A DNA stretch of 64,000 nucleotides from NCBI GenBank assembly GCA_964291375.2, contig OZ219810.1, forward strand, positions 54,021 to 118,020, written 5' to 3'. Shown here piece after piece: positions 6,314 through 29,200 of the stretch. Both the position numbers and the translations under genes were made by a program. The first letter of the stretch is position 1. Each line of letters begins with the position of its first letter. The notes under the pieces are model-generated. The model was not told the DNA's origin and did no database searches. It saw only the letters and a program-made list of their open reading frames with translations. This DNA comes from Paracoccaceae bacterium. GTDB lineage: Bacteria; Pseudomonadota; Alphaproteobacteria; Rhodobacterales; Rhodobacteraceae.

Positions 6314-6411
6314 CAAGCCGTCTGACCCGCGGTGAAAACCACCCCGGCGGGCAGACGATGGTGCCCGCTTTTTCCCCACAGAACGCCTCTGGCAGGAAAG
6401 GAATGCCCGAA

Positions 6412-8007: not shown

Positions 8008-8020
8008 GCGGGTGGGATGT

Positions 8021-8056
8021 GGGGCAGGCTGGTGCGGAAGGGCCGCACCCTGCCCG
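8021..8056. terminator. GC-rich hairpin between convergent serA and the giant gene
   Basis: GGTGCGG (8031-8037) pairs with CCGCACC (8043-8049), extended by GGGCAGG / CCTGCCC. There is no T-tract. Confidence 0.3.
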
Positions 8057-8104
8057 GCTCAGTCAATATGCAGAGGTCTTCGCAGACCATGATCGGTCCC
8101 GGCC

Positions 8105-10519
8105 TTATCCCCGACAACACCTAGAACCTGAAGTTGAGGGAGACCCCGACGGTATAGCTGCGCTGATCCCCGGACAGGCCGATGCCATCGGCGGCCCCGA
8201 AGAACTCGGCGCTGAGGCCACCGTCAAGATCATCTGCCCGCCCGCAAAGCCGAGCGTCACCGTCGCATTCAGCCCCGCCAGATTGCCCCCCGAGGCGGTC
8301 ACGTCATACACACGCGAGGCCGTCACCTGACTGACCGACAGCTGTGCCGTCGTGTTGCTCACCGTGAAATCCGCCGCGTTCACATTCTTCACGTCCTCGC
8401 TGAACGTCACCCGCCAGGTCACGCTGTCCGCATTCGTCGGCGAACTCCCCGGCGTCTGATGCACAATCGACGCAACCCCCGGCGCGGTGTTGTCGATCAC
8501 GTAAGCGCTTTCATCCGTCCCCGTCGGCGCGGTGTTGGAAAGGGCGTTGTCGGCAAGATCGGCGATATTCTGCCCGCCCGCAAAGCCGAGCGTCACCGTC
8601 GCATTCAGCCCCGCCAGATTGCCACCCGAGGCGGTCACGTCATACACCCTTGAGGCCGTCACTTCGCTGAAATTCAGCTGTGCCGTCGTGTTGCTCACCG
8701 TGAAATCCGCCGCGTCCACATTCTTCACGTCCTTGCTGAACGTCACCCGCCAGGTCACGCTGTCCGCATTCGTCGGCGAACTCCCCGGCGTCTGATGCAC
8801 GATCGACGCAACACCCGGCGCGCTGGTGTCATAGACGGACGTGGCCTGCGTGGCCGCAGTGCTCGGGTTGCCCGCCGCATCCGTCGCCGCGCTCGCCGCA
8901 ACGTCTATCGTCACCTCGCCCTCCGCCGAGGGCGTGATCTCCGCCGTCCACACCCGACCGGCGGTGACCGGGGTGAAGGACCCGGCCGCGCCGTTGCCGA
9001 CGCTGATGTCGCCAACCACAAAACCCGTCACCGGCTCCGAAAAGCTGAACCGGGCGGTGAAGGCCGACGAACTCCGCGCCGGAACATCCGAAATCGTCAC
9101 CCCCGGCGCGGTGTTGTCGATCACGTAAGCGCTTTCATCCGTCCCCGTCGGCGCGGTGTCGGAAAGGGCGTTGTCGGCAAGATCGGCGATATTCTGCCCG
9201 CCCGCAAAGCCGAGCGTCACCGTCGCATTCAGCCCCGCCAGATTGCCCCCCGAGGCGGTCACGTCATACACCCTTGAGGCCGTCACTTCGCTGAAATTCA
9301 GCTGTGCCGTTGTGCCGCTCACCGTGAAATCCGCCGCGTCCACATTCTTCACGTCCTTGCTGAACGTCACCCGCCAGGTCACGCTGTCCGCATTCGTCGG
9401 CGAACTCCCCGGCGTCTGATGCACGATCGACGCAACACCCGGCGCGCTGGTGTCATAGACGGACGTGGCCTGCGTGGCCGCAGTGCTCGGGTTGCCCGCC
9501 GCATCCGTCGCCGCCGCCGCCGCAACGTCTATCGTCACCTCGCCCTCCGCCGAGGGCGTGATCTCCGCCGTCCACACCTGATCGGCGGTGACCGGGGTGA
9601 AGGATCCGGCCGCGCCGTTGCCGACGCTGATGTCGCCAACCACAAAACCCGTCACCGGCTCCGAAAAGCTGAACCGGGCGGTGAAGGCCGACGAACTGCG
9701 CGCCGGAACATCCGAAATCGTCACCCCCGGCGCGGTGTTGTCGATCACGTAAGCGCTTTCATCCGTCCCCGTCGGCGCGGTGTTGGAAAGGGCGTTGTCG
9801 GCAAGATCGGCGATATTCTGCCCGCCCGCAAAGCCGAGCGTCACCGTCGCATTCAGCCCCGCCAGATTGCCACCCGAGGCGGTCACGTCATACACAAGCG
9901 AGGCCGTCACTTCACTGAAATTCAGCTGTGCCGTTGTGCCGCTCACCGTGAAATCCGCCGCGTCCACATTCTTCACGTCCTTGCTGAACGTCACCCGCCA
10001 GGTCACGCTGTCCGCATTCGTCGGCGAACTCCCCGGCGTCTGATGCACGATCGACGCAACACCCGGCGCGCTGGTGTCATAGACGGACGTGGCCTGCGTG
10101 GCCGCAGTGCTCGGGTTGCCCGCCGCATCCGTCGCCGCCGCCGCCGCAACGTCTATCGTCACCTCGCCCTCCGCCGAGGGCGTGATCTCCGCCGTCCACA
10201 CCTGATCGGCGGTGACCGGGGTGAAGGACCCGGCCGCGCCGTTGCCGACGCTGATGTCGCCAACCACAAAACCCGTCACCGGCTCCGAAAAGCTGAACCG
10301 GGCGGTGAAGGCCGACGAACTGCGCGCCGGAACATCCGAAATCGTCACCCCCGGCGCGGTGTTGTCGATCACGTAAGCGCTTTCATCCGTCCCCGTCGGC
10401 GCGGTGTTGGAAAGGGCGTTGTCGGCAAGATCGGCGATATTCTGCCCGCCCGCAAAGCCGAGCGTCACCGTCGCATTCAGCCCCGCCAGATTGCCACCCG
10501 AGGCGGTCACGTCATACAC
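8105..10519 (-). CDS. giant gene fragment 8 (array end plus out-of-frame tail)
   Basis: Units A17 to A21'. The last 42 codons (MILTVASAPSSSGPPMASACPG...) are nonsense-like. The OMP-like tail sits in another frame, with its stop at 8121-8123. Confidence 0.75.
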   Translation of the reverse strand: MYDVTASGGNLAGLNATVTLGFAGGQNIADLADNALSNTAPTGTDESAYVIDNTAPGVTISDVPARSSSAFTARFSFSEPVTGFVVGDISVGNGAAGSFTPVTADQVWTAEITPSAEGEVTIDVAAAAATDAAGNPSTAATQATSVYDTSAPGVASIVHQTPGSSPTNADSVTWRVTFSKDVKNVDAADFTVSGTTAQLNFSEVTASLVYDVTASGGNLAGLNATVTLGFAGGQNIADLADNALSNTAPTGTDESAYVIDNTAPGVTISDVPARSSSAFTARFSFSEPVTGFVVGDISVGNGAAGSFTPVTADQVWTAEITPSAEGEVTIDVAAAAATDAAGNPSTAATQATSVYDTSAPGVASIVHQTPGSSPTNADSVTWRVTFSKDVKNVDAADFTVSGTTAQLNFSEVTASRVYDVTASGGNLAGLNATVTLGFAGGQNIADLADNALSDTAPTGTDESAYVIDNTAPGVTISDVPARSSSAFTARFSFSEPVTGFVVGDISVGNGAAGSFTPVTAGRVWTAEITPSAEGEVTIDVAASAATDAAGNPSTAATQATSVYDTSAPGVASIVHQTPGSSPTNADSVTWRVTFSKDVKNVDAADFTVSNTTAQLNFSEVTASRVYDVTASGGNLAGLNATVTLGFAGGQNIADLADNALSNTAPTGTDESAYVIDNTAPGVASIVHQTPGSSPTNADSVTWRVTFSEDVKNVNAADFTVSNTTAQLSVSQVTASRVYDVTASGGNLAGLNATVTLGFAGGQMILTVASAPSSSGPPMASACPGISAAIPSGSPSTSGSRCCRG

Positions 10520-12150
10520 CGCGAGGCCGTCACTTCGCTGAAATTCAGCTGTGCCGTTGTGCCGCTCACCGTGAAATCCGCCGCGTCCACATTCTTCACG
10601 TCCTTGCTGAACGTCACCCGCCAGGTCACGCTGTCCGCATTCGTCGGCGAACTCCCCGGCGTCTGATGCACGATCGACGCAATCCCCGGCGCGGTGTTGT
10701 CGATCACGTAAGCGCTTTCATCCGTCCCCGTCGGCGCGGTGTCGGAAAGGGCGTTGTCGGCAAGATCGGCGATATTCTGCCCGCCCGCAAAGCCGAGCGT
10801 CACCGTCGCATTCAGCCCCGCCAGATTGCCCCCCGAGGCGGTCACGTCATACACCCTTGAGGCCGTCACCTGACTGACCGACAGCTGTGCCGTTGTGCCG
10901 CTCACCGTGAAATCCGCCGCGTTCACATTCTTCACGTCCTCGCTGAACGTCACCCGCCAGGTCACGCTGTCCGCATTCGTCGGCGAACTCCCCGGCGTCT
11001 GATGCACAATCGACGCAACACCCGGCGCGGTGTTGTCGATCACGTAAGCGCTTTCATCCGTCCCCGTCGGCGCGGTGTCGGAAAGGGCGTTGTCGGCAAG
11101 ATCGGCGATATTCTGCCCGCCCGCAAAGCCGAGCGTCACCGTCGCATTCAGCCCCGCCAGATTGCCCCCCGAGGCGGTCACGTCATACACCCTTGAGGCC
11201 GTCACTTCGCTGAAATTCAGCTGTGCCGTTGTGCCGCTCACCGTGAAATCCGCCGCGTTCACATTCTTCACGTCCTCGCTGAACGTCACCCGCCAGGTCA
11301 CGCTGTCCGCATTCGTCGGCGAACTCCCCGGCGTCTGATGCACAATCGACGCAACCCCCGGCGCGGTGTTGTCGATCACGTAAGCGCTTTCATCCGTCCC
11401 CGTCGGCGCGGTGTTGGAAAGGGCGTTGTCGGCAAGATCGGCGATATTCTGCCCGCCCGCAAAGCCGAGCGTCACCGTCGCATTCAGCCCCGCCAGATTG
11501 CCCCCCGAGGCGGTCACGTCATACACCCTTGAGGCCGTCACTTCACTGAAATTCAGCTGTGCCGTTGTGCCGCTCACCGTGAAATCCGCCGCGTCCACAT
11601 TCTTCACGTCCTTGCTGAACGTCACCCGCCAGGTCACGCTGTCCGCATTCGTCGGCGAACTCCCCGGCGTCTGATGCACGATCGACGCAACACCCGGCGC
11701 GCTGGTGTCATAGACGGACGTGGCCTGCGTGGCCGCAGTGCTCGGGTTGCCCGCCGCATCCGTCGCCGCCGCCGCCGCAACGTCTATCGTCACCTCGCCC
11801 TCCGCCGAGGGCGTGATCTCCGCCGTCCACACCTGATCGGCGGTGACCGGGGTGAAGGACCCGGCCGCGCCGTTGCCGACGCTGATGTCGCCAACCACAA
11901 AACCCGTCACCGGCTCCGAAAAGCTGAACCGGGCGGTGAAGGCCGACGAACTGCGCGCCGGAACATCCGAAATCGTCACCCCCGGCGCGGTGTTGTCGAT
12001 CACGTAAGCGCTTTCATCCGTCCCCGTCGGCGCGGTGTTGGAAAGGGCGTTGTCGGCAAGATCGGCGATATTCTGCCCGCCCGCAAAGCCGAGCGTCACC
12101 GTCGCATTCAGCCCCGCCAGATTGCCCCCCGAGGCGGTCACGTCATACAC
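10507..12150 (-). CDS. giant gene fragment 7 (array)
   Basis: Made only of A and B cassettes, units A13 to A17. Confidence 0.8.
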   Translation of the reverse strand: MYDVTASGGNLAGLNATVTLGFAGGQNIADLADNALSNTAPTGTDESAYVIDNTAPGVTISDVPARSSSAFTARFSFSEPVTGFVVGDISVGNGAAGSFTPVTADQVWTAEITPSAEGEVTIDVAAAAATDAAGNPSTAATQATSVYDTSAPGVASIVHQTPGSSPTNADSVTWRVTFSKDVKNVDAADFTVSGTTAQLNFSEVTASRVYDVTASGGNLAGLNATVTLGFAGGQNIADLADNALSNTAPTGTDESAYVIDNTAPGVASIVHQTPGSSPTNADSVTWRVTFSEDVKNVNAADFTVSGTTAQLNFSEVTASRVYDVTASGGNLAGLNATVTLGFAGGQNIADLADNALSDTAPTGTDESAYVIDNTAPGVASIVHQTPGSSPTNADSVTWRVTFSEDVKNVNAADFTVSGTTAQLSVSQVTASRVYDVTASGGNLAGLNATVTLGFAGGQNIADLADNALSDTAPTGTDESAYVIDNTAPGIASIVHQTPGSSPTNADSVTWRVTFSKDVKNVDAADFTVSGTTAQLNFSEVTASRCMT

Positions 12151-14356
12151 CCGAGGCCGTCACTTCGCTGAAATTCAGCTGTGCCGTTGTGCCGCTCACC
12201 GTGAAATCCGCCGCGTTCACATTCTTCACGTCCTCGCTGAACGTCACCCGCCAGGTCACGCTGTCCGCATTCGTCGGCGAACTCCCCGGCGTCTGATGCA
12301 CAATCGACGCAACACCCGGCGCGGTGTTGTCGATCACGTAAGCGCTTTCATCCGTCCCCGTCGGCGCGGTGTCGGAAAGGGCGTTGTCGGCAAGATCGGC
12401 GATATTCTGCCCGCCCGCAAAGCCGAGCGTCACCGTCGCATTCAGCCCCGCCAGATTGCCCCCCGAGGCGGTCACGTCATACACCCTTGAGGCCGTCACT
12501 TCGCTGAAATTCAGCTGTGCCGTTGTGCCGCTCACCGTGAAATCCGCCGCGTCCACATTCTTCACGTCCTTGCTGAACGTCACCCGCCAGGTCACGCTGT
12601 CCGCATTCGTCGGCGAACTCCCCGGCGTCTGATGCACGATCGACGCAACACCCGGCGCGCTGGTGTCATAGACGGACGTGGCCTGCGTGGCCGCAGTGCT
12701 CGGGTTGCCCGCCGCATCCGTCGCCGCCGCCGCCGCAACGTCTATCGTCACCTCGCCCTCCGCCGAGGGCGTGATCTCCGCCGTCCACACCTGATCGGCG
12801 GTGACCGGGGTGAAGGACCCGGCCGCGCCGTTGCCGACGCTGATGTCGCCAACCACAAAACCCGTCACCGGCTCCGAAAAGCTGAACCGGGCGGTGAAGG
12901 CCGACGAACTGCGCGCCGGAACATCCGAAATCGTCACCCCCGGCGCGGTGTTGTCGATCACGTAAGCGCTTTCATCCGTCCCCGTCGGCGCGGTGTTGGA
13001 AAGGGCGTTGTCGGCAAGATCGGCGATATTCTGCCCGCCCGCAAAGCCGAGCGTCACCGTCGCATTCAGCCCCGCCAGATTGCCACCCGAGGCGGTCACG
13101 TCATACACACGCGAGGCCGTCACTTCACTGAAATTCAGCTGTGCCGTTGTGCCGCTCACCGTGAAATCCGCCGCGTCCACATTCTTCACGTCCTTGCTGA
13201 ACGTCACCCGCCAGGTCACGCTGTCCGCATTCGTCGGCGAACTCCCCGGCGTCTGATGCACGATCGACGCAACACCCGGCGCGCTGGTGTCATAGACGGA
13301 CGTGGCCTGCGTGGCCGCAGTGCTCGGGTTGCCCGCCGCATCCGTCGCCGCCGCCGCCGCAACGTCTATCGTCACCTCGCCCTCCGCCGAGGGCGTGATC
13401 TCCGCCGTCCACACCTGATCGGCGGTGACCGGGGTGAAGGACCCGGCCGCGCCGTTGCCGACGCTGATGTCGCCAACCACAAAACCCGTCACCGGCTCCG
13501 AAAAGCTGAACCGGGCGGTGAAGGCCGACGAACTGCGCGCCGGAACATCCGAAATCGTCACCCCCGGCGCGGTGTTGTCGATCACGTAAGCGCTTTCATC
13601 CGTCCCCGTCGGCGCGGTGTTGGAAAGGGCGTTGTCGGCAAGATCGGCGATATTCTGCCCGCCCGCAAAGCCGAGCGTCACCGTCGCATTCAGCCCCGCC
13701 AGATTGCCACCCGAGGCGGTCACGTCATACACAAGCGAGGCCGTCACTTCACTGAAATTCAGCTGTGCCGTTGTGCCGCTCACCGTGAAATCCGCCGCGT
13801 CCACATTCTTCACGTCCTTGCTGAACGTCACCCGCCAGGTCACGCTGTCCGCATTCGTCGGCGAACTCCCCGGCGTCTGATGCACGATCGACGCAACACC
13901 CGGCGCGCTGGTGTCATAGACGGACGTGGCCTGCGTGGCCGCAGTGCTCGGGTTGCCCGCCGCATCCGTCGCCGCCGCCGCCGCAACGTCTATCGTCACC
14001 TCGCCCTCCGCCGAGGGCGTGATCTCCGCCGTCCACACCTGATCGGCGGTGACCGGGGTGAAGGACCCGGCCGCGCCGTTGCCGACGCTGATGTCGCCAA
14101 CCACAAAACCCGTCACCGGTTCCGAAAAGCTGAACCGGGCGGTGAAGGCCGACGAACTGCGCGCCGGAACATCCGAAATCGTCACCCCCGGCGCGGTGTT
14201 GTCGATCACGTAAGCGCTTTCATCCGTCCCCGTCGGCGCGGTGTTGGAAAGGGCGTTGTCGGCAAGATCGGCGATATTCTGCCCGCCCGCAAAGCCGAGC
14301 GTCACCGTCGCATTCAGCCCCGCCAGATTGCCCCCCGAGGCGGTCACGTCATACAC
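12143..14356 (-). CDS. giant gene fragment 6 (array)
   Basis: Made only of A and B cassettes, units A9 to A13. Confidence 0.8.
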   Translation of the reverse strand: MYDVTASGGNLAGLNATVTLGFAGGQNIADLADNALSNTAPTGTDESAYVIDNTAPGVTISDVPARSSSAFTARFSFSEPVTGFVVGDISVGNGAAGSFTPVTADQVWTAEITPSAEGEVTIDVAAAAATDAAGNPSTAATQATSVYDTSAPGVASIVHQTPGSSPTNADSVTWRVTFSKDVKNVDAADFTVSGTTAQLNFSEVTASLVYDVTASGGNLAGLNATVTLGFAGGQNIADLADNALSNTAPTGTDESAYVIDNTAPGVTISDVPARSSSAFTARFSFSEPVTGFVVGDISVGNGAAGSFTPVTADQVWTAEITPSAEGEVTIDVAAAAATDAAGNPSTAATQATSVYDTSAPGVASIVHQTPGSSPTNADSVTWRVTFSKDVKNVDAADFTVSGTTAQLNFSEVTASRVYDVTASGGNLAGLNATVTLGFAGGQNIADLADNALSNTAPTGTDESAYVIDNTAPGVTISDVPARSSSAFTARFSFSEPVTGFVVGDISVGNGAAGSFTPVTADQVWTAEITPSAEGEVTIDVAAAAATDAAGNPSTAATQATSVYDTSAPGVASIVHQTPGSSPTNADSVTWRVTFSKDVKNVDAADFTVSGTTAQLNFSEVTASRVYDVTASGGNLAGLNATVTLGFAGGQNIADLADNALSDTAPTGTDESAYVIDNTAPGVASIVHQTPGSSPTNADSVTWRVTFSEDVKNVNAADFTVSGTTAQLNFSEVTASGV

Positions 14357-16005
14357 ACGCTTGAGGCCGTCACTTCGCTGAAATTCAGCTGTGCCGTTGT
14401 GCCGCTCACCGTGAAATCCGCCGCGTTCACATTCTTCACGTCCTCGCTGAACGTCACCCGCCAGGTCACGCTGTCCGCATTCGTCGGCGAACTCCCCGGC
14501 GTCTGATGCACGATCGACGCAATCCCCGGCGCGGTGTTGTCGATCACGTAAGCGCTTTCATCCGTCCCCGTCGGCGCGGTGTTGGAAAGGGCGTTGTCGG
14601 CGAGGTCGGCGATATTCTGCCCGCCCGCAAAGCCGAGCGTCACCGTCGCATTCAGCCCCGCCAGATTGCCCCCCGAGGCGGTCACGTCATACACACGCGA
14701 GGCCGTCACCTGACTGACCGACAGCTGTGCCGTTGTGCCGCTCACCGTGAAATCCGCCGCGTTCACATTCTTCACGTCCTCGCTGAACGTCACCCGCCAG
14801 GTCACGCTGTCCGCATTCGTCGGCGAACTCCCCGGCGTCTGATGCACGATCGACGCAATCCCCGGCGCGGTGTTGTCGATCACGTAAGCGCTTTCATCCG
14901 TCCCCGTCGGCGCGGTGTTGGAAAGGGCGTTGTCGGCGAGGTCGGCGATATTCTGCCCGCCCGCAAAGCCGAGCGTCACCGTCGCATTCAGCCCCGCAAG
15001 GTTGCCGCCTGAGGCGGTCACGTCATACACACGCGAGGCCGTCACTTCACTGAAATTCAGCTGTGCCGTTGTGCCGCTCACCGTGAAATCCGCCGCGTCC
15101 ACATTCTTCACGTCCTTGCTGAACGTCACCCGCCAGGTCACGCTGTCCGCATTCGTCGGCGAACTCCCCGGCGTCTGATGCACGATCGACGCAACACCCG
15201 GCGCGCTGGTGTCATAGACGGACGTGGCCTGCGTGGCCGCAGTGCTCGGGTTGCCCGCCGCATCCGTCGCCGCCGCCGCCGCAACGTCTATCGTCACCTC
15301 GCCCTCCGCCGAGGGCGTGATCTCCGCCGTCCACACCTGATCGGCGGTGACCGGGGTGAAGGACCCGGCCGCGCCGTTGCCGACGCTGATGTCGCCAACC
15401 ACAAAACCCGTCACCGGCTCCGAAAAGCTGAACCGGGCGGTGAAGGCCGACGAACTGCGCGCCGGAACATCCGAAATCGTCACCCCCGGCGCGGTGTTGT
15501 CGATCACGTAAGCGCTTTCATCCGTCCCCGTCGGCGCGGTGTCGGAAAGGGCGTTGTCGGCAAGATCGGCGATATTCTGCCCGCCCGCAAAGCCGAGCGT
15601 CACCGTCGCATTCAGCCCCGCCAGATTGCCCCCCGAGGCGGTCACGTCATACACCCTTGAGGCCGTCACTTCGCTGAAATTCAGCTGTGCCGTTGTGCCG
15701 CTCACCGTGAAATCCGCCGCGTCCACATTCTTCACGTCCTTGCTGAACGTCACCCGCCAGGTCACGCTGTCCGCATTCGTCGGCGAACTCCCCGGCGTCT
15801 GATATACGATCGACGCAATCCCCGGCGCGGTGTTGTCGATCACGTAAGCGCTTTCATCCGTCCCCGTCGGCGCGGTGTCGGAAAGGGCGTTGTCGGCGAG
15901 GTCGGCGATATTCTGCCCGCCCGCAAAGCCGAGCGTCACCGTCGCATTCAGCCCCGCCAGATTGCCCCCCGAGGCGGTCACGTCATACACCCTTGAGGCC
16001 GTCAC
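14344..16005 (-). CDS. giant gene fragment 5 (array)
   Basis: Made only of A and B cassettes. Begins inside unit A5 and ends inside unit A9. Confidence 0.8.
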   Translation of the reverse strand: MTASRVYDVTASGGNLAGLNATVTLGFAGGQNIADLADNALSDTAPTGTDESAYVIDNTAPGIASIVYQTPGSSPTNADSVTWRVTFSKDVKNVDAADFTVSGTTAQLNFSEVTASRVYDVTASGGNLAGLNATVTLGFAGGQNIADLADNALSDTAPTGTDESAYVIDNTAPGVTISDVPARSSSAFTARFSFSEPVTGFVVGDISVGNGAAGSFTPVTADQVWTAEITPSAEGEVTIDVAAAAATDAAGNPSTAATQATSVYDTSAPGVASIVHQTPGSSPTNADSVTWRVTFSKDVKNVDAADFTVSGTTAQLNFSEVTASRVYDVTASGGNLAGLNATVTLGFAGGQNIADLADNALSNTAPTGTDESAYVIDNTAPGIASIVHQTPGSSPTNADSVTWRVTFSEDVKNVNAADFTVSGTTAQLSVSQVTASRVYDVTASGGNLAGLNATVTLGFAGGQNIADLADNALSNTAPTGTDESAYVIDNTAPGIASIVHQTPGSSPTNADSVTWRVTFSEDVKNVNAADFTVSGTTAQLNFSEVTASSVCMT

Positions 16006-18175
16006 TTCGCCAGCGCGTTGTGCCGCTCACCGTGAAATCCGCCGCGTTCACATTCTTCACGTCCTCGCTGAACGTCACCCGCCAGGTCACGCTGTCCGCA
16101 TTCGTCGGCGAACTCCCCGGCGTCTGATGCACAATCGACGCAACACCCGGCGCGGTGTTGTCGATCACGTAAGCGCTTTCATCCGTCCCCGTCGGCGCGG
16201 TGTCGGAAAGGGCGTTGTCGGCGAGGTCGGCGATATTCTGCCCGCCCGCAAAGCCGAGCGTCACCGTCGCATTCAGCCCCGCCAGATCGCCACCCGAGGC
16301 GGTCACGTCATACACAAGCGAGGCCGTCACCTGACTGACCGACAGCTGTGCCGTCGTGTTGCTCACCGTGAAATCCGCCGCGTCCACATTCTTCACGTCC
16401 TCGCTGAACGTCACCCGCCAGGTCACGCTGTCCGCATTCGTCGGCGAACTCCCCGGCGTCTGATGCACAATCGACGCAACCCCCGGCGCGGTGTTGTCGA
16501 TCACGTAAGCCCTTTCATCCGTCCCCGTCGGCGCGGTGTTGGAAAGGGCGTTGTCGGCAAGATCGGCGATATTCTGCCCGCCCGCAAAGCCGAGCGTCAC
16601 CGTCGCATTCAGCCCCGCCAGATTGCCCCCCGAGGCGGTCACGTCATACACCCTTGAGGCCGTCACTTCGCTGAAATTCAGCTGTGCCGTCGTGTTGCTC
16701 ACCGTGAAATCCGCCGCGTCCACATTCTTCACGTCCTTGCTGAACGTCACCCGCCAGGTCACGCTGTCCGCATTCGTCGGCGAACTCCCCGGCGTCTGAT
16801 GCACGATCGACGCAACACCCGGCGCGCTGGTGTCATAGACGGACGTGGCCTGCGTGGCCGCAGTGCTCGGGTTGCCCGCCGCATCCGTCGCCGCCGCCGC
16901 CGCAACGTCTATCGTCACCTCGCCCTCCGCCGAGGGCGTGATCTCCGCCGTCCACACCTGATCGGCGGTGACCGGGGTGAAGGACCCGGCCGCGCCGTTG
17001 CCGACGCTGATGTCGCCAACCACAAAACCCGTCACCGGCTCCGAAAAGCTGAACCGGGCGGTGAAGGCCGACGAACTGCGCGCCGGAACATCCGAAATCG
17101 TCACCCCCGGCGCGGTGTTGTCGATCACGTAAGCGCTTTCATCCGTCCCCGTCGGCGCGGTGTTGGAAAGGGCGTTGTCGGCAAGATCGGCGATATTCTG
17201 CCCGCCCGCAAAGCCGAGCGTCACCGTCGCATTCAGCCCCGCCAGATTGCCACCCGAGGCGGTCACGTCATACACAAGCGAGGCCGTCACTTCACTGAAA
17301 TTCAGCTGTGCCGTTGTGCCGCTCACCGTGAAATCCGCCGCGTCCACATTCTTCACGTCCTTGCTGAACGTCACCCGCCAGGTCACGCTGTCCGCATTCG
17401 TCGGCGAACTCCCCGGCGTCTGATATACGATCGACGCAATCCCCGGCGCGGTGTTGTCGATCACGTAAGCGCTTTCATCCGTCCCCGTCGGCGCGGTGTT
17501 GGAAAGGGCGTTGTCGGCGAGGTCGGCGATATTCTGCCCGCCCGCAAAGCCGAGCGTCACCGTCGCATTCAGCCCCGCCAGATTGCCCCCCGAGGCGGTC
17601 ACGTCATACACACGCGAGGCCGTCACCTGACTGACCGACAGCTGTGCCGTTGTGCCGCTCACCGTGAAATCCACCGCGTTCACATTCTTCACGTCCTCGC
17701 TGAACGTCACCCGCCAGGTCACGCTGTCCGCATTCGTCGGCGAACTCCCCGGCGTCTGATGCACGATCGACGCAACACCCGGCGCGGTGTTGACCACCAC
17801 CGGGCCGACAGGATCGCTCACAAGCGTCTCGGTGTTGGGGGTGGTGTCACGGTCGTCGAAGCTCACCCGCACCGCTATATGATAGCCCGCATCGTCGGCA
17901 ACCGGCGTGTAGGTCTGGCCGTCCGCGTCTTGAATTGGTACCGCTCCGGGGCTTACAGGCGAACCGTCAACTACTCTCAGGCGCACCCACCGGAAGCTGT
18001 AGCCAATCGGGAACGCCGTCGAGGGCAGACCATCCGCATCTGCCATATCCCCCGCGCGCGCCGTCAGCGTCCACACCGACAAACGCATCCCCCTCGATCT
18101 CCGGCGCGCCGGTCGCAGGGCTGTTGTCATCATCCAAAATTGTGATCGTCGCCGGGCCGATCCCGGTGCTGTCAT
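15983..18175 (-). CDS. giant gene fragment 4 (entry into the tandem array)
   Basis: LTARAGDMADADGLPSTAFPIGYSFRWVRL continues the module interrupted at about 18071. It is followed by cassettes A A B A A A. Confidence 0.8.
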   Translation of the reverse strand: MTAPGSARRRSQFWMMTTALRPARRRSRGMRLSVWTLTARAGDMADADGLPSTAFPIGYSFRWVRLRVVDGSPVSPGAVPIQDADGQTYTPVADDAGYHIAVRVSFDDRDTTPNTETLVSDPVGPVVVNTAPGVASIVHQTPGSSPTNADSVTWRVTFSEDVKNVNAVDFTVSGTTAQLSVSQVTASRVYDVTASGGNLAGLNATVTLGFAGGQNIADLADNALSNTAPTGTDESAYVIDNTAPGIASIVYQTPGSSPTNADSVTWRVTFSKDVKNVDAADFTVSGTTAQLNFSEVTASLVYDVTASGGNLAGLNATVTLGFAGGQNIADLADNALSNTAPTGTDESAYVIDNTAPGVTISDVPARSSSAFTARFSFSEPVTGFVVGDISVGNGAAGSFTPVTADQVWTAEITPSAEGEVTIDVAAAAATDAAGNPSTAATQATSVYDTSAPGVASIVHQTPGSSPTNADSVTWRVTFSKDVKNVDAADFTVSNTTAQLNFSEVTASRVYDVTASGGNLAGLNATVTLGFAGGQNIADLADNALSNTAPTGTDERAYVIDNTAPGVASIVHQTPGSSPTNADSVTWRVTFSEDVKNVDAADFTVSNTTAQLSVSQVTASLVYDVTASGGDLAGLNATVTLGFAGGQNIADLADNALSDTAPTGTDESAYVIDNTAPGVASIVHQTPGSSPTNADSVTWRVTFSEDVKNVNAADFTVSGTTRWRSDGLKGV

Positions 18176-21100
18176 GGGTGGCGGTGATCACAACCGTCTC
18201 GTCCGGCTCCTCGTCAACCGTGTCCTGAACCGCCGTCACCGTGGTTGTCACCAAACTCGTCCCCGCCGTCAGCGTCAGGCTCTCGTCGGCGATTGTGAAA
18301 TCGTCGGTCTTGGTCGCCGTGCTGCCGTCAAACGCCAGCGTGATCGTCTGGTCTGCCGCAAACGTCACCCCGTTGGTGATCTCAACCGTCACCGTTGATG
18401 TGCCCGCGTCCTCGGCAATCTCCACCGGGTCCACCGACAACGCCAACACTGGTTTCGGCGTCGCGTTGGTCACATCCTCGCTAAAGGTCGCCACCGGGTT
18501 GCCGCCTGTGTCCTTCAGCCGCGGGTCCGCCCCCGGATCGGTATAGCTGACCGTCACCTGCCCGCTGCCAAACCTGATCGCCGCAGAAAGCGTCAGGGTG
18601 ACCTTTGTGCCAGCAACGGAAACGTTATCGACCGACGGCCCGGTATCGCCCCCGATCTGCACCGTGAACGCCCCCTTATCCGGGATCGAAGCCGTATCCA
18701 GCGCCTCGTCAAATGTCAGCACCAGTTCCGCCCCGTTGACCTCTGGCGGCGTGTCCGGGGCCAGCATCGGCGGGGTGGCGTCCGCCACCACCGTGCCGCC
18801 CGGCGGATAGGCGACGCTGGCGCGTGTCTCGCCTGTTCCGCGTGTGTCGGTGAAGCTCACCTTCACCCTGACCTGCTTGCCAACGTCGTCGTCGGTCAGG
18901 GTATAAGTCGCGCCGGTCGCGCCGGAGATGTCGGCCTCGGTCGCGCCATCGACCCGCACCCATTGTAAATTGTAATCCGTCGGGAAGGTCGCATCGGGCA
19001 GCCCGTCCAAATCCGCAATATCCCCCGCATCCGCCGTCAGCACAGCGCCCAACTCTGCCGTGCCGGAAATCCCGGGCGTGCCCGTCGCCGGGCTGTTGGG
19101 GGCCGACAGACTGACCGAAACCTTTTGGCCCACAGTCCAACTGACCGTGAAACGCTCGATGTTCCAGGCAACTCTGCTGCGATCATTACCCGCGTCATCT
19201 CTACTATCCGAGAAGTTCAGGGAAGTATTGCCGACTTTCAGAACAAACCGGTTCTTTTGATCATTCGTCAGATCGTTTTTGAAATCAATGGTGAAGCTGG
19301 TGGCATTACCAACAACCGTTCTGAACACAGCCCGGACTTCGTTATCGCCATCCGGGAAGGTGAAATCATCACCACTCAGGCTGCCGTAAGTTGTGCTGAT
19401 CGTATCGTAACCTGTGTTAGCTCCTGTTATCCCCACCCCCAGGCAGGCGGTCCAGAAAGTGCCGTCAGGCTGGCCGGTGGTGGCGGGACATTCGGGCGAG
19501 CTGTTGGTCACCGCCTGGGCGGCGGTGAAGGTTGCGACAGGATTGCCAGCGGTGTCTTTCAGCCGCGGGTCCGCCCCCGGATCAGTATAGAGCACCGTCA
19601 CCGTCTCGCCCCCGATCACCGCCTCGGCGAGCGTCAGCGTCACCACCGTGTCAGCGACGGAAACACCCGAAACCGTTGTCGTGCGATCCGTATTGTCGAT
19701 GCCGGTCACCGTCACCGTAAACGCACTGCCCGCCGGTTCCTGATCCTCATCCAGCGCCTTATCAAAGGTCAGCGTCAGCGCCTTTGAGGTTACCGCCGCG
19801 CTCCCGCTCACGAACAGGGGCGCGGTGGTGTCGGGAACATCGGTGATATTGACCACGGCAACGGCGACAGTCCCCGCCGAAATCCCCGACGGCAGGGTTC
19901 CGAAACCCAGCGTGATAAACTCGCCGCTGTCGTTGAACGAATCCTCTGCCGCCGTGATCGTAAAGCTCTTCTCTGTCTCTGCCGCGCCAAAGCTCAGGCT
20001 GGCCGGAACCCCGGAATAATCATCCGCGCCCGCGCCGCCGCCGCCCGCTTCGCTCAGCGGTATCTCCACCACCCGGCCCGGCTCGGCGCTCAGCGTCACC
20101 GTGACCGTGACATCTTCGCCCTCATTCACGGTATAGGACGCCTGCCCGTAGCTGACCGACGCCTGCCCGGTGGTGTTCGTAGCATCTTCATCTGTCAGCG
20201 CCGCCGCCGGGTTTCCGGCCAAATCCTGCAACGGCGTCGCGTCTGCCCCCGAAGGCTGTCGATACGAAACCGTCACACTGTCCGATCGCGTCACCTCTGT
20301 GGCCAGCGTCAGCGTCACAACCCGGCCTGCGACCGCGACCGCGCTCGGGGTCTGGTCGGTGCCGTCCACGGTCACCGTAAACGCAGAACCGGGCGGCGTT
20401 GAGTCGGCATCCAGCGTCTCATCATAGGTCAGCGTCAGCGTGCCGCCGGTCGCCACCGCCATCTCGAACTCCGGCGCAGCCGTATCCACCCGGTGGTAGG
20501 GCCATGGCCCGTATGCGTCGTGCTCCAGGTCCGCCGTATTGTCGTGCTCATCCTTTATCTCTTCTGCGGCCAGCTTGTTGGCGGCAACACGTATCCCGTC
20601 GTCGGCCTGATCGCTGTCGGTAACCTCATAGGTGAAGACGAGCTTGGTATCGCCTGCGGCGGTGCTCCGGTCAGCGTCATAGGTGGCGGTGCGCTCTGTC
20701 CCGCCGACATCAATTTTGAGCGTCGGCGGGGGTGTGTCATCCAGGACGATGGCTTCGTGGAACGTCACCTCCAATGCGATTGTCTCGCCCTCTGCATATA
20801 CCCCGTCATGGTCTTCCGGGGGGATCGGCGCAATACTGACAACTTCGGGGCTAAGGGTATCAACCTCAACATCAAGGCTGGCATAAGGGTTGTCATTCCC
20901 GCTTTCGCTGGTGATCCGCCCCTGCGGCAAAAACACCGTCAGCGTTCCCTCGAAATTCTGCTTCGGACGAACATAGAAATCGAAGACCCGCTTCGCCGTA
21001 ACGGTCGCCCAATCCCTGTGAAAAGCACCCGCTCTCGGCGGGGAGCCGTTGGTGACACGTAAATCCTCGGACCTGTCAAAATGTCTGTCCCTCGGAAATC

Positions 21101-23192
21101 GTGTATCTTCGGGAGACTGTTCGTTTATAAGGTCCGGCACAGGCTGGTTGAATGTGATCCTGGCACGAAAGCGCCCTGTCACCGGCTCTGTCGCCTCGGT
21201 GGTTATGTCCGTTTCCATTGGCGGGGCATTGATCGGATAAGGGCCATAGGTTGTCTCTGCGTTGCCCTGATCCACCGCGTCTTCGCGCAGCGTCACCTTG
21301 ATCTCGTCGCCATGCGCACCGGTGGCAGCAACGAATACCCCATACGACCTGTTGCTTCGCAATTGGGTCATAAAATCAATATTTTGCAATACACGCCTCA
21401 CTTCGCCGTTCTGTACCGTGAAATCATCCACGTCCAGCCCGGTAACATCCTGACTGAAATTGAGCGCCACTATGAATTCCCACCGGGTGATAAGATGGTT
21501 TGTATTTACATCGAACTCCCAATCTTGCGGAAAGCGACCCGTTCTCACGGTTGGCCGCGGGGTGTCGTTGGTCACCGCCTGATTGGTCAGCGCCGCCACA
21601 GTGTTGCCGTCCTCATCCCGGATCGGGCTGGCCCCCACCGTGTAATCAAGCCGCACCTGCTGGGGCGCGAACGCCGGGCTGGCAAGGGTCAGGATCACCG
21701 TCTGGCCAGAGACGGCGACGGGACTGGTGCTGTCAAGCGCCCGCACCACGTTATTGATCCGCACCTCGAAATCATCCGCCGCCGGAACCGACGCCGTATC
21801 CAGCACCTCGTCATAGGTCAGCGTCAGCGTGTCGCCGCTCACCACCGCCGTCTCAAGCACCGCCGCACGGGTGCTGGTGACCGTTCCGTCGGACGGATAG
21901 GCGGCGCTGGTGAGCGTTTCCGTGTCCCCGCGCTTGTCGGTAAAGCTGATCCGCGCCTTGATCTGCTTGTCCTCATCGGCGTCCTGAAGCGTGTAGGTGT
22001 TGCCCGCCGCGCCGGTGAGCAGGCTCTCGTCATTGCCATCAACCCGCAGCCACTGCCAGGTATGTCCGTCAGGCAAACCGTCGCTGTCCGTGTCAAAACC
22101 GTCCGCATCCGTGATGCCGCTTGCTGTTGCCGTCAGCACCTGGCCCACCTGCGCGGTGCCCGTCACCGTCACCGTGCCCGTCGCCGGGCTGTTGTCGTCT
22201 TCGGTGATGGTGATCTCTGCCCCGGAGCCGGTGATCGAATAGGTCTGGCTGTCGGTGATATGGGTGTAGTCGGCGATGGCGATGCTGATCGTCCTGTCGC
22301 CTGTGTTGGCTGTGTTGTCTACCGCCTCAATCGTTGTCTCGACCGCGCTTTCGCCCGCAGCAAGCATCAGGGCCGTGCTGCCGATGGTATAGTCGGTTCC
22401 CTCGGTCGCCGTGCCGGTCAGCATCAGGGCGAAGGTCTTATCATCGGGGAACGTGTATCCGTTTGTCGAGCGCACCGTCAGCGTTGAGGCACCGCCATTC
22501 TCAGAAAAATCGTGTCCGCCGAGACATGACAGCTCCAGCTCCGGCGGGGCGTCATCATCGGTCACCGTGGTGGTCGCGGCAGAGCCGGCCCCGATCAGTG
22601 CATTGAAATTTGCATGGGGTGCCACCGTGATGCTCTGGGTTTCATCCGGTTCGTCCCGGCTGTCATCGGTGACCTGCGCCTCTACGGTGATGGTCTGCGC
22701 CGCCCCGTTCTCATTGTTGCCGGTTTCGAATCTGATCAGCTCATTGCTCAGAAGCTCAAGGTTGCCATTCCACCTGCCGCCGGACGTGGTGTCCTGCGCG
22801 TTCAGATACACCCGAACGTGCCGATCCCCCGACGGCATCGGCGCAGGCACCGGCGACAGCGTGACATTGTAAGAGACTGTCCCGGCATCCTCATTCACCG
22901 CCTGCGACGCAGGTGTGATCGTCAGCGTCGCCTTGCCGACCGGCCCGACGCCCGTGCTGGTCAGCGTCTCGGGGTTGCCGGCGTCATCATTGAACGACAC
23001 TTCCACCGCGATGTATTTGCCAATATCGTCGGCAGAGAGTGGCCGATATGTCGCCCCGGTTATGCCCGTGATCACCTCTGCGTTCGTCCCGGTCGCGTCA
23101 TCCTGGCGGAACCACTTGTAGCTATAGCTGACGCGGTTCAGCCCTTCCGTATCCGCAATGCCGGAGACATTCGCCGTCAGTGTCTCGCCCAC
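17967..23192 (-). CDS. giant gene fragment 3 (1741 codons)
   Basis: Same domain vocabulary: Calx-beta, SwmB-type repeats, one Cys-FW-Cys module and W-x-W sandwich modules. This frame is already open upstream to about 23325, where it continues fragment 2. Confidence 0.85.
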   Translation of the reverse strand: MGETLTANVSGIADTEGLNRVSYSYKWFRQDDATGTNAEVITGITGATYRPLSADDIGKYIAVEVSFNDDAGNPETLTSTGVGPVGKATLTITPASQAVNEDAGTVSYNVTLSPVPAPMPSGDRHVRVYLNAQDTTSGGRWNGNLELLSNELIRFETGNNENGAAQTITVEAQVTDDSRDEPDETQSITVAPHANFNALIGAGSAATTTVTDDDAPPELELSCLGGHDFSENGGASTLTVRSTNGYTFPDDKTFALMLTGTATEGTDYTIGSTALMLAAGESAVETTIEAVDNTANTGDRTISIAIADYTHITDSQTYSITGSGAEITITEDDNSPATGTVTVTGTAQVGQVLTATASGITDADGFDTDSDGLPDGHTWQWLRVDGNDESLLTGAAGNTYTLQDADEDKQIKARISFTDKRGDTETLTSAAYPSDGTVTSTRAAVLETAVVSGDTLTLTYDEVLDTASVPAADDFEVRINNVVRALDSTSPVAVSGQTVILTLASPAFAPQQVRLDYTVGASPIRDEDGNTVAALTNQAVTNDTPRPTVRTGRFPQDWEFDVNTNHLITRWEFIVALNFSQDVTGLDVDDFTVQNGEVRRVLQNIDFMTQLRSNRSYGVFVAATGAHGDEIKVTLREDAVDQGNAETTYGPYPINAPPMETDITTEATEPVTGRFRARITFNQPVPDLINEQSPEDTRFPRDRHFDRSEDLRVTNGSPPRAGAFHRDWATVTAKRVFDFYVRPKQNFEGTLTVFLPQGRITSESGNDNPYASLDVEVDTLSPEVVSIAPIPPEDHDGVYAEGETIALEVTFHEAIVLDDTPPPTLKIDVGGTERTATYDADRSTAAGDTKLVFTYEVTDSDQADDGIRVAANKLAAEEIKDEHDNTADLEHDAYGPWPYHRVDTAAPEFEMAVATGGTLTLTYDETLDADSTPPGSAFTVTVDGTDQTPSAVAVAGRVVTLTLATEVTRSDSVTVSYRQPSGADATPLQDLAGNPAAALTDEDATNTTGQASVSYGQASYTVNEGEDVTVTVTLSAEPGRVVEIPLSEAGGGGAGADDYSGVPASLSFGAAETEKSFTITAAEDSFNDSGEFITLGFGTLPSGISAGTVAVAVVNITDVPDTTAPLFVSGSAAVTSKALTLTFDKALDEDQEPAGSAFTVTVTGIDNTDRTTTVSGVSVADTVVTLTLAEAVIGGETVTVLYTDPGADPRLKDTAGNPVATFTAAQAVTNSSPECPATTGQPDGTFWTACLGVGITGANTGYDTISTTYGSLSGDDFTFPDGDNEVRAVFRTVVGNATSFTIDFKNDLTNDQKNRFVLKVGNTSLNFSDSRDDAGNDRSRVAWNIERFTVSWTVGQKVSVSLSAPNSPATGTPGISGTAELGAVLTADAGDIADLDGLPDATFPTDYNLQWVRVDGATEADISGATGATYTLTDDDVGKQVRVKVSFTDTRGTGETRASVAYPPGGTVVADATPPMLAPDTPPEVNGAELVLTFDEALDTASIPDKGAFTVQIGGDTGPSVDNVSVAGTKVTLTLSAAIRFGSGQVTVSYTDPGADPRLKDTGGNPVATFSEDVTNATPKPVLALSVDPVEIAEDAGTSTVTVEITNGVTFAADQTITLAFDGSTATKTDDFTIADESLTLTAGTSLVTTTVTAVQDTVDEEPDETVVITATHDSTGIGPATITILDDDNSPATGAPEIEGDAFVGVDADGARGGYGRCGWSALDGVPDWLQLPVGAPESS
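19105..19490 (-). other. Cys-FW-Cys module 8
   Basis: ECPATTGQPDGTFWTACLGVG ... FVLKVGNTSLNF ... VAWNIERFTVSWTVGQKVSVSL. Confidence 0.5.
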
Positions 23193-23211
23193 CTGTATCG
23201 TGCCTGCGGGA

Positions 23212-26200
23212 TCAACATTGTCGTTGATCGTCGGCGAGCCTGTCGGCGCGGTATTTACAACCTCGTTGACGATGGTGATCGTCTTCGGGGTGATACTGCC
23301 CGCAACCAGCGTCGTATCGCCATGGAGTGGCGGTGATGATGATTTTCTCGCCGTTGTCGTCGATGCTGTCGGCCACTGCCGTCACCGTCGTCTCAGCCGC
23401 GACCGAAGTTTCGTCCGCCGGAGGTTCGCCCGCCCGGAGCGTCAGGGTCTTGGTGCCGATGGTATAGTCCGCGCCCTCGGTCGCCGTGCTGCCGGCAAGC
23501 GACAGCGTGACCTGCTGATTTCGGCGGAACGTCACCCCGTTGGTGACCCCCACCCTGACCGTCGAAACGCCGCCAGCCTCGACAATAATGCCCGGCAACA
23601 CCCCCAGCTCCAGTTCTGCGACATCATTGTCGAGAATGGTGATCAGGGTTTCATCATTCTGAAGGGCATCGGAAAAAGTGAAAAAACTGTTTATGCCCGG
23701 ATTCCGTCCCACAAGCACTCTGAAGCTATGAGGCCCTTCCACCACATTATCATCTGCCGCCAACACTTGTATCGGTGCCTGTGCGCCCGCCGTAACCCCG
23801 CCCGAATAGGTTTTTGAGTAACGGATTTTATTGTTAGCCGGAAATGACGCATAGGTTGATATAAATTGATCACTTCCCAACTGAAAGCCTGTCGGTTGGG
23901 AAAAGCTGAGGTTCAGATCGAAATCAAATTCGATCGCTTTCGAGAAGTTGGGCACAAGATCAAGCGTATCCCCTTCCGTTACCTCGTAAGAGGTTTCGGC
24001 CAGGCTCACCGTGGCCGTGTCATCACTGGTAACTCTGCCAAGCGGTTGTGTCTCGGGCGTCAGCGTTTCCAGTGAAACGTCATAATCACCGAATACCGGG
24101 GCCGGGCCTTCCCACGCCATGGTGAACCCGAAATACTCAAATCTCTCAACCGTATCATCATCGAGGACCGGAACATCGAATGTGGCGCTGGTGGCCCCCT
24201 GGCTGATCGTCACCGTGGTATCAACCGCCGTGTAGTCCTGCCCCGCCGTCGCAGGGTGGTTGAGGCCTAAAATGTAATTGCCCGCATAGTCTGACGTGCC
24301 CATCCGCAGCGTCACGTCCCCGCTCAGCGCCACCCGGTCGCCATCTGCGTCCACAATCGCCAGAGTCACCGTCACAGGGTCGCCACTCGACTCGATCGCA
24401 CGGTATTCCCTGCGAGTTCTGAAAACATTGTCGAACTCAACGAATTTGATTGTGAGCGGGATTTTCTGCGTGTCGTTGCGCACGGACTGGCCGCTCAGGT
24501 TGGCGGCGTCATTCCCGGCCACGTCCTCAATCGGGTTTGTCCCGCCGGTATAGGTCAGCACCACCGCCTGATGGCTGAGCAGAAGCGATGTGGCCAGGGT
24601 CAGCCGCACCTCTGCGCCCGAGACCTCTGCCCCCGACACCGTTACCCCGGTGCCATCCGCTGTCACCGTGAAATCGCCCGCGCCCGGAACCGACGCCTCA
24701 TTCAGCGCCTCATCATAGGTCAGTGTCAGCGTTTTGCCGTTCCCCACCGCCGATTGCAGCACCGGCACACTGCGGTCCAGAACCGCCTGAGCAGTCAGGT
24801 TCGCGGCGTCACTCCCGGTCAAATCCTCAATCGGGTTGGTCCCTGCGGTATAGGTCAGCACCACAGGCACGCCATTGGTGACCACCGTCCCCGACGTCAG
24901 GGCCAGCACCACCGTCATGCCGGACACCGACACACCCGAAACCGTCACCCCGGTGCCATCCGCCGTCACCGTGAAATCGCCCGTGACAGGCACCGACCTC
25001 TCGTTCAGCGCCTCATCATAGGTCAGCGTCAGCGTATCGCCGTTCAGCGCCGCCGATTGCAGCACCGGCGTGTCGCCGTCCGTCACCGCCTGACCGCTCA
25101 GGTCATCGGCATCATTCCCGGCCAAATCCTCAATCGGGTTGTCGCCCCGCGTATAGGCCAGCCTCACCCGCAGGCCATTGGCAGGCGGCGGGGTCAGGGT
25201 CAGCACCACCGTCATGCCCGAAACCGACACGCCCGAAACCGTTGCCCCGGCATCGCCCGCCGTCACCGCAAAATCTCCCGGCACCGGCACCGACGCCCCA
25301 TTCAGCGCCTCATTATAGGTCAGCGTCAGGGTGCCGCCGATGATTTTCGCCGATTGCAGCACCGGCAGAACGTTGTCGAAATCGGTAATCGTGCCGGTTG
25401 CTGTCGTCGCTGTAGGGCTGGGATCAAGGGTCGCGTTGACCGGGCTTTTCAGCGTCACGGTGAAGGTCTCTTCCCCCTCTGTCACCGCGTCCTGAACCGT
25501 GGCTATGCTGATCGCCCCCTCGGTCGCCAGCGGCTCAAGGGTCACGGTGCTGTCCGCCGCCGTGTAATCGTCGGGCGCGACCGCCGTGCCGTCCGACGTG
25601 CTATAACCAAGTGTCACACGCTTTGCGCTCGCAGCCGAGAGCGTCACCGTGAACTCCACCGGCAACTCTTCCGAGGCCGTCCCGCCCGTGATCGACGCCA
25701 CCGGCGGCGGCACGGGGTTGGGCACGGTCGTGGTCGTCACATCCGCCACCGGATTCATGGCCGCGTCCCGGATCGGGTCTGTCCCCGGCGCGGTATAGCC
25801 TACCGTGACCTCCTGTGCATGAATGACCACCGGATCAAGGGTCAGCACCACCGTCATGCCACTGACCGCGACACCGGCAACCGACGCCCCGCCCGCCGTC
25901 ACCGTAAAGTCCCCCGCAGCCGGAACCGACCCCTCATCCAGTGCCTCATCATAGGTCAGGGTCAGCACCGCCCCGTCCTCACTCAGCACAATCGCATCCA
26001 GCAACGGCGGGGCGGTATCCGTCAGGGGCGTGGCATTGGCCACTTCCTGTTTTGTCAGCCCCGCCGCATTGTTCATCCACACGTCCCGGATCATGTCATC
26101 CTCGGGCGGCCCCGTCTGCGGCGTATAGACCAGCCGCACCCTCTGCCCGCGCAAAACCGCCGGGAACAGGGTCATATCCACCGTCGAGCCGCTGATGGTC

Positions 26201-29200
26201 ACATCCGACACCCTGACCGTATTGCCGTCCACCGTCACCGTGAAGGCATCGGCAGGCGGCACCGAATCCATATCCAGCGGCTCGCTATAGGTCAGCGTCA
26301 ACCGCTCACGATTGACCGAGGCCGAGGCCAGCACCGGCACGGTTTCGTCATCCACCGTCAGGATAAAGCTTGTCTCGACACTGCGGCCATCCTCTCCGTC
26401 CGTGCGGCCCGGCCCGTCATCGGCCTTCACCGTGACGGTGATCTCGCCCGCGGCAGATTGCGGCGGTATGCCGGAAAATGTCGTCCCGTCAAAGGCAAGC
26501 CATATGCCGGTGGCCGGATCGGTCAGCGCGGTGCCGTCCACGCTCGCCGTATAGGTCAGGGGATCATTCAGCGGGTCACTGAATGTCCCTGTCGGCAGGT
26601 CAAAGCTGAACGTGTTGCCTGCCACCACCGATTGCGCGGGGATGTCCGCCGCGACCACTGGCGGGGGGTTCTTGTAAAGCAACGCAACCGGCACCCTGTC
26701 ACGGGCATTGTCGCGGCCCCAGTCGAGGCGTCCGCCATCTGACCAGACGCGGAATGAGGGGATAGTGTTGAAACCGTCAGTACTGTCCTCAAAATCATAG
26801 GTCTCTCCGCCAACTTCCAGCGCCCAGCCATTCCTGATGGCTGCGCCGGGGTCTGAGTTGAACCTGAGATAAAGATTGGCAGTGTTAGAATTCGTTAAAA
26901 TGTCAGTAGATAAGTTTATAATTTCGTATGTGTCACTTCCCACGCTGAACGTGGCAACAGGGAGCAACTTCCCAAACATAGGAGTATTTCGAGATTCAAA
27001 CCCAAAGGCAAGACCGCTACCCCCAATCGTCAGGCAGGCGTCCCAGAAGACCTTCGCGGACGGCGCGGCGGGGCAGGACGGCGAGGTGTTGATAACCGTC
27101 TCATCCGTAAACCCATCAGCCGCATTGTTGCTGGTGTCGCGCAACTTGTTGGTGGAGTCATCGTCGTCATAGGACACCGTGACACGCTCACCGCTGATCG
27201 TGTTCCCGAGAATCGTCAGCGTCACCTCTGTGCCCGAGATCGAAACATCGGACACCGACGATACCGAATCGTCATCGTCGCCGATCTCGGTGCCGTTGAT
27301 CTTGACGGTGAACGCGGTAACGTCCGGTTTCGAGTTCGCATTCAGTGCTTCGTTATAGACAAGTGTCAGGGTCTTGTTGTTGACCGCCGCTGATTGCAGC
27401 ACCGGGCCGGTCACGTCGTTATCATTGTCCTCAATCGTGCCAGTGGCAGTTGCCGGGCCATGCCCCAAAATCGCGTTCACCGGGTTGCTGAGCGTAACGG
27501 TTAAGGTCTCGTCCGGCTCATGGTCGGTGTCATCTGTGGTTGAGATGGTGATCGTCTTGAAGTCATCCTCGTCCGACGCCTTAAAGACGAGTGTGCCGCC
27601 GCCTGCCGTGAAATCATCGCCCGCGGTCGCGGTGTCGCCGGTGACGGTGTAATCGACCGTTATATCAGCCGTATCTTCGTCGGCCCTTCCCGTCAGATCC
27701 ACCCTGAAGTTCAGAGCATTGCCTTCCTCGACCGATGCGACGCCCGAATCAAATGACACCGCCGGCAGCGTCGGCGTTATCTGCACTGTTTCCGTCTCCC
27801 GGCCATTGCCCACGGCGTTCACGGCCCGAAGCTGAAATTCATAGGTCGCACCGGCGGTCAGGCCCGTTACCTCGTGAAGGTTCACTAGCTGCGGGGCAGA
27901 GACGGTTGATGTCCATTCTGTCCATGTTCCCGTTTCCGGCGGTGTGCGGTGCCGCACCTCATAGCGGGTGATCGCCGAATTGCCGTTAAAGCCCGGTGGG
28001 TTCCAGCTCAGGAGCGCCCCCCTGACATCCGGGTCATTGAGGAGTATGATCGGCGGCTCGGGCGGGAACAGATTTGCAACCGTTACCTCATTTGAGGTGG
28101 CAGAGAGTGTGCGCCCAGCATCATAATAGACGGTCATGCTGAATGTGCTGCCTGCCCCCGGCGGGTCGGAAAATTCGATATAACCCGCTGTCGCGTCTGC
28201 AAGCGCCGTGCCACTGTCTATCGTGATGGCGGCGGGTGCGCCCCCCGACTCCGAGTCGGCCACAACATAAGATACAATGTCGCTGGTGTGCGAGGGCTGC
28301 TCCCAGGTGAAGTCGTATCTGAAGATGTGCGTGCCATCGTCCTGGTAAGAGTCACTGAGGGTTGGAGTGGCCAGTTTCGGCGGTTTGAAATCCACCGGCC
28401 CCACCGGATTGCTGACAAGCGTTTCCACATTGCTCGCAAGATCGGTGAAGCTGATCTGAACCTTTATGGTTGTGCCATAATCAGCGTCCTGAAGGGTGTA
28501 GGTTGTTGCCGTCGCGCCCTCAATCGGGGTCTCGTCCCCGCTGTCGCCATCAACCCGTATCCACTGCCAGGTGAGGTCATCAGGAAAACCGTCGTTGTCC
28601 GTGTCAGTAAAACCGTCCGCATCCATGATAGTGCCTGAGCTTGCCGTCAGCGTCTGGCCAACCTGCGCGTCGCCCGTAATCGTCACCGTTCCCGTCGCCG
28701 GGTTGGCCGGGCCGATCACAAGGGTGAAGGTATGGCTGGCACTGCCGCCCCTACCGTCATTCGCCGTCAGCTTTATCATCCACTCGCCTTCCGCCTCCGC
28801 TGGCGGGTTCGGGCTGACGAGGCCGCCCACGCCCGGGTCGTTCGGTGCGTATATGAGCCAAGAAGAGGGCAATTCGCTGTCGTCCGCCAGCGTTACGGTA
28901 TAGGTCAGACTATCCCCGTCCGGGTCGGTAAACATGTCCGCCGGGAAATTGTGGAAGAAACCGACACCAACAGACGCTTTCGGCAGTTCCACCACGTTCG
29001 TCACCACCGGCGGCCGGTTGACCGTCAGCGTGAACACATCGGCCACCATCCCGCCCTCGCCGTCAGCCGCCGTCACCTTCACCTGAAGCTCAAGCGCCCC
29101 GTCATAATCCGCAGCGGGCGCACCGGTGAACGTGGTTCCGTCAAAACTCAGCCAGGCGGGCAGCGCGCTGTCATCCTCCAGCGCCGCCGTATAGGTCAGA

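Follow-up and report, generated by a model that had tools for sequence, protein, structure and literature searches.

The window, a stretch of 64,000 nucleotides from one contig of the assembly (C2), carries on its minus strand a chain of open reading frames (ORFs) that runs from 40085 down to 8121. Based on this chain, its domains, and the single product called on a sister contig, we assign it to one giant autotransporter-type adhesin gene (8121..40085, minus strand), which is split into eight or more frames as assembled. The gene product is a giant surface protein with Pfam matches to SWM_repeat, Calx-beta, He_PIG, and Big_12 domains, and its N-terminus at 40085 (...LAAVVLAALPGGGTAWAQ) is signal-peptide-like, as judged by eye without a predictor. 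No close orthologue was found in 40 related genomes, where the best identity was 41%. The remaining ~32 kb of the window hold about 20 genes with full-length Pfam matches.

In its architecture, the gene resembles type Va autotransporter adhesins with a long tandem Ig-like passenger. The signal-peptide-like N-terminus is accompanied by tens of Ig-like or Calx-beta/SWM repeats, and the copy on another contig of the assembly (C1) has a C-terminal PF03797 beta-domain (74.9 bits), ending in ...SLNFRF. In contrast to such adhesins, the protein is of extreme size (11,920 aa on a sister contig), and the window copy is not a single ORF. This copy retains the signal-peptide-like N-terminus and the repeat-rich passenger but has no in-frame C-terminal PF03797 beta-barrel: relative to the C1 copy, about 1.9 kb that includes the autotransporter beta-domain is absent at 8233/8234.

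Within the gene lies a tandem array (8234..17785, minus strand) of 21 A units of 336 bp, nine of which are followed by a B unit of 288 bp (Big_12). The array units are 96–99% identical to one another, and the longest exact repeat within the array is 728 bp. The anchor GTCACGTCATACAC occurs in 21 copies between 8298 and 17598, regularly spaced at 336 bp where A stands alone and at 624 bp where the 288-bp B follows it. Four odd spacings of 335, 334, 338, and 325 bp follow anchors 5, 9, 13, and 17. In intact units, the plus-strand text after ACAC reads CCTTG, ACGCG, or AAGCG, and the gene-strand alleles of the two codons before VYDV are TCAAGG, TCGCGT, and TCGCTT. Exact-pattern scans of genome contigs and metagenome contigs for the array unit gave no match.

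Frame changes in the window copy

The original prediction placed four breaks in A units 5, 9, 13, and 17, with length changes of -1, -2, +2, and -11, and the anchor spacings agree with it. In unit 5 (10516..10526, minus strand), the plus strand reads CGCG and the gene strand TCGCG where a 6-nt allele is expected. Unit 9 (12147..12156, minus strand) has CC and then GAGG on the plus strand, corresponding to TCGG on the gene strand, while unit 13 (14353..14366, minus strand) reads ACGCTTG on the plus strand and TCAAGCGT on the gene strand. The fourth lesion, in unit 17 (16005..16020, minus strand), lies in the NFSE/SVSQ patch that adjoins the VTAS patch and consists of three close deletions: at 16011–16016, CAGCGC replaces TGAAATTCAGCTGTGCC, which on the gene strand amounts to the separate loss of G, ACA, and AATTTCA. 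The flanking GTGTGT is unaltered at the lesion sites, and none of the four sites contains a homopolymer or short tandem tract.

The expected toggling between two frames was also recovered, the minus-strand ORF starts being 1,0,1,0,1 modulo 3, as was the unequal spacing in base pairs, with lesion-to-lesion distances of 1631, 2206, and 1634 bp. The regularity in unit count had been put at 8 of 4845 placements (0.17%). This figure is too low, as it counts a spacing of four units only; when any equal spacing is allowed, 57 of 4845 or 63 of 5985 placements qualify, a chance of about 1% for four equally spaced hits among 20–21 units.

The three lesions in the VTAS patch can be described by a single gapped alignment of two alleles, TC AA G G - - (TCAAGG) against TC - - G C G T (TCGCGT), under which each lesion carries one or the other allele in every column. 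Unit 13 is then TC AA G C G T, unit 9 is TC - - G G - -, and unit 5 is TC - - G C G -. Since homologous exchange between 6-nt alleles preserves length, these wrong-length lesions fit a mixture generated by pile-up, partial-order consensus, or read correction.

We identified four further frame changes outside the array, which were absent from the original prediction. Two of them lie in unique sequence. At 39631..39634 (minus strand), the window has G4 on the gene strand, compared with G5 and an open frame in two sister assemblies. Near 23323 (23320..23328, minus strand), one extra base in ACTCCATGG disrupts an ...ITATH... motif, which a further copy of the module retains. A third change, near 18071 (18061..18077, minus strand) and just upstream of the array, is one extra base in GGTGTGGACG. 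The fourth is the 8233/8234 junction itself (8225..8239, minus strand), where the last A unit is out of frame with the final 38 codons of the gene.

Two versions of the locus and frame errors in the assembly

The end of C1 (2519144) and the end of C2 (181297) join through a 5-bp overlap, ACTGC, and the joined ends rebuild one methylmalonyl-CoA-mutase-like ORF (...LALYIAVAEEQGAE...). We therefore rejected the idea that C2 is a plasmid and regard it as part of the chromosome; a search of a plasmid collection gave no match. At its other end, C2:1-62253, which includes window positions 1–8233, is collinear with C1:76940-11742 at 95–99% identity. The substitutions between the two are concentrated at third codon positions, so the copies are genuinely different DNA, and the 62-kb flank of C2 is not a sloppy re-assembly of C1. 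They could stem from two different strains or haplotypes or from an old duplication event. The second 62-kb copy has the look of a two-haplotype bubble, or of a circular contig, drawn from a mixed population, whose ends overlap; an old duplication in tandem is also possible. An 882-bp segment with an Abi_C-domain gene is present in C1 and in the metagenome contigs L031 and L032 and is missing at window position 3389.

C2 is the poorer-quality contig of the two. Its first 5217 bp show zero substitutions against C1, and its first 4 kb contain 11 one- or two-base deletions, which break ORFs of 446 and 728 aa. At the other isolated 1–2 bp indels between the contigs, the longer ORF was on C1 in six of six cases, as in one example of 2234 aa on C1 against 1345 plus 1018 aa on C2. 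The resulting frame-error rate on C2 is about 1 per 10 kb, which agrees with the three breaks that the adhesin has in its 22 kb of unique sequence. Immediately upstream of the window, C2:43661-50346 holds another giant repeat-protein gene, a single ORF of 2234 aa on C1, which a difference of one base within a C run splits into 1345 and 1018 aa on C2; a ~3.3-kb module of this gene recurs at five further places on C1 with 95–98% identity.

To assess frame errors elsewhere in the assembly, the ORFs in 400 kb of a genome from the same genus were compared with it by tblastn, giving 133 orthologue-like genes. Four of these were split between frames: valS (C1 ~2102438), der (~1493290), glnD (~2117285), and soxA (~2222340). 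In glnD and der, the frame is lost at runs of C5 and C9. Neither valS nor der has a second copy in the assembly, and a living cell cannot dispense with either gene, so that their splits are proven frame errors of the assembly. Two pairs of adjacent large ORFs on C1 (345100-351734 and 2461885-2467960) were considered as broken genes and proved to be separate genes.

Intact versions of the array and gene are present on other contigs. C1 starts within a second A/B array with 18 anchors, mostly at 624-bp spacing, and C1:2780-11851 contains an uninterrupted frame of 3,024 aa that crosses 14 units and reaches the C-terminal part, with all patches intact. Only the first 2.8 kb, at the contig tip, are messy, with a 383-bp deletion and a +1 change; the deletion strikes the same NFSE/VTAS patch as the window lesions. 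The C1 array follows an S-LLLLL higher-order pattern with a period of 3456 bp and runs into a full autotransporter C-terminus (C1:1-11851).

The adhesin locus was also found on three ENA metagenome contigs (L029, L030, and L032). On L029 (ENA ERZ24894577 ctg520657l, about 81–117 kb), the adhesin is called as a single 11,920-aa protein. The frame continues across 39631–39634 in L030, and both L029 and L030 have G5 there, compared with G4 in the window. L032 holds 9.9 kb of array and the C-terminus in one frame, within a call of 4,606 aa; it has a C1-type array without a damaged patch. For the four array lesions, the comparison covers these other array versions (C1 and L032), which are intact but not unit-for-unit equivalent to that of the window. 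On a further contig, L031 (ENA ERZ24894577 ctg521451l), serA is followed by thiE with no giant gene adjoining, so the position of the adhesin relative to serA varies between strains.

Origin of the array lesions

Taken together, the sequence comparisons suggest that the four lesions are probably consensus or read-correction errors of a long-read assembly, made from mixed templates, rather than mutations of the organism. The original prediction had favored wrong-length allele chimeras from consensus, and this core fits the proven frame errors, the poor contig, the intact versions, and the column mixtures. It did less well on the source of the reads, which it sought in other units of the window array; these are probably not the source, and a second, co-assembled version at the start of C1 is likelier. 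At least two versions of the locus were present in the sequenced DNA, that of C2 (the window) and that at the start of C1, whose arrays have units and alleles in common but in a different order. Where a unit has a near-identical context of 1–2 kb in the other array, yet another multi-nucleotide allele, both kinds of reads would be piled together. An aligner would set TCAAGG against TCGCGT with gaps, and a column-by-column consensus could then emit strings of the wrong length. We infer both the presence of mixed reads at the lesion sites and a software step that produced the mixture.

This mechanism would also explain much of the regular spacing. The NFSE codon variant AGC accompanies TCAAGG in all six of the other window units that carry it, whereas its partner in the C1 and L032 arrays is always TCGCGT. 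The broken units 5, 9, and 13 all carry AGC; no B unit precedes any of them, and A+B follows each. The C1 array has three AGC units (anchors 762, 4460, and 7916), which are arranged in the same way. We compared contexts of 320 nt upstream and 800 nt downstream of the patch, with the lesion units in corrected register. In this ranking, which is post hoc and presupposes which allele is the true one, units 13, 5, and 9 differ from the C1 units with AGC and TCGCGT by 6, 7, and 12 positions in 1.1 kb and are the closest 3 of 21, while the next closest window units have 23 differences and most have more than 100. The likeness to the C1 units extends for ~1.4 kb or more in units 5 and 13 and for ~1.1 kb in unit 9. 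The lesions thus appear to fall where the two array versions resemble each other yet carry different patch alleles.

Positions 5, 9, and 13 are therefore the seats of one unit family, which accounts for three of the four regularly spaced hits. The spacing had originally been left unexplained; the unit family explains most of it, and its regularity was overstated. The case of unit 17 differs: the units closest to it in short context (6, 21, and 14) carry SVSQ, while it retains a remnant of NFSE, and its extension of the series is a coincidence of about 1 in 9. Two other causes of the spacing were rejected: higher-order exact duplication, because no exact repeat exceeds 728 bp and block pairs show no excess similarity over random unit pairs, and polishing windows of fixed size, because the spacing is equal in units and unequal in base pairs.

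Gene-fragmenting indel errors of long-read assemblies have been treated before (Kastor, PMC12007338; Homopolish, PMC8011154). The breaks in the present assembly resemble them in that they also affect essential single-copy genes, lie in many cases at short homopolymers, are biased towards deletions, and become more severe at the ends of contigs and on the contig of lower quality. The array lesions differ in being wrong-length mixtures of two multi-nucleotide alleles, which points to mixed templates rather than base-calling bias. Several observations count against an artefact. The array lesions are non-homopolymer, unlike most of the proven errors of the assembly. The interior of the C1 array is clean, so repeats alone do not force such errors, and units 3, 4, 11, and 12 are intact, although they too have contexts nearly identical to ones that carry other alleles. 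Only chance accounts for the position of unit 17 in the series. Finally, the beta-barrel is missing from the window copy, which makes real decay plausible.

Such decay would mean that the C2-type haplotype carries a dead, deteriorating copy of the gene with its translocator deleted, in which exchange between array versions or between units makes the patch an indel hot spot. We consider this unlikely, although it is the strongest of the alternatives. About 1.9 kb including PF03797 is gone from the window copy and its tail follows in another frame, the haplotype is genuinely a separate one (third-codon divergence and absence of the 882-bp Abi_C segment at window 3389), and all eight frame changes lie within one gene. 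Yet random decay would be very unlikely to place three independent indels within a single 6-nt stretch of a 336–624-bp unit, and the contig carries sequencing-type deletions that break neighboring genes. Moreover, the sole frame change that is comparable with the sister contigs is a difference in homopolymer length. Equal-length allele exchange, for its part, leaves length unchanged. A more specific proposal, which we regard as improbable, is that the lesions are real products of exchange between co-existing array versions, with tract ends in the clustered polymorphism leaving wrong-length chimeras. If the lesions were real, they would represent a recombination-linked indel hot spot in a coding tandem array, chopping a giant autotransporter gene at a recurring unit type.

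If, as we favor, the lesions are consensus or read-correction artefacts, they serve as a warning, as the record breaks an adhesin gene of ~11,000 aa into at least eight pieces. The same record splits a single chromosome between two contigs and attaches a 62-kb alternative haplotype, and its frame errors in essential genes make pseudogene counts and protein sets derived from it unreliable. Wrong-length mixtures of equal-length alleles, in units whose context matches a second array version, may offer a read-free flag for consensus errors.

A functional role of the breaks, as programmed frameshifting, slipped-strand phase variation, or five coupled ORFs, is highly improbable: each downstream ORF opens with the GTG of VYDV and overlaps the end of the upstream ORF by a few bases, but a GTG and a TGA occur in every unit, so that such stop–start overlap is trivial after any shift. 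The GTG lies at the unit start and TGA is found in both wrong frames within 13 nt of each lesion; the original frame is regained after each lesion pair, and the spacing is regular in unit count. Against this, the four lesions have four different sequences and shifts (-1, -2, +2, and -11), with no common slippery heptamer or simple-sequence tract. No Shine-Dalgarno-like motif precedes the GTGs, the downstream pieces have no signal peptide, and intact single-frame versions exist in C1, L032, and L029.

The locus does share with phase-variable surface-protein genes a surface adhesin with frame changes and a variable heptamer tract upstream. It differs from genes switched by simple sequence repeats in that no lesion lies in a simple-sequence tract and the heptamer is upstream of the start codon. 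This tract, (AGCCGGG)6 on the gene strand (window 40130-40171), directly follows TATAAT and lies 45 nt before the start codon of the adhesin. Its copy number is 6 in the window, 7 in L029, and 12 in L030, and we regard it as a candidate expression switch of the adhesin gene.
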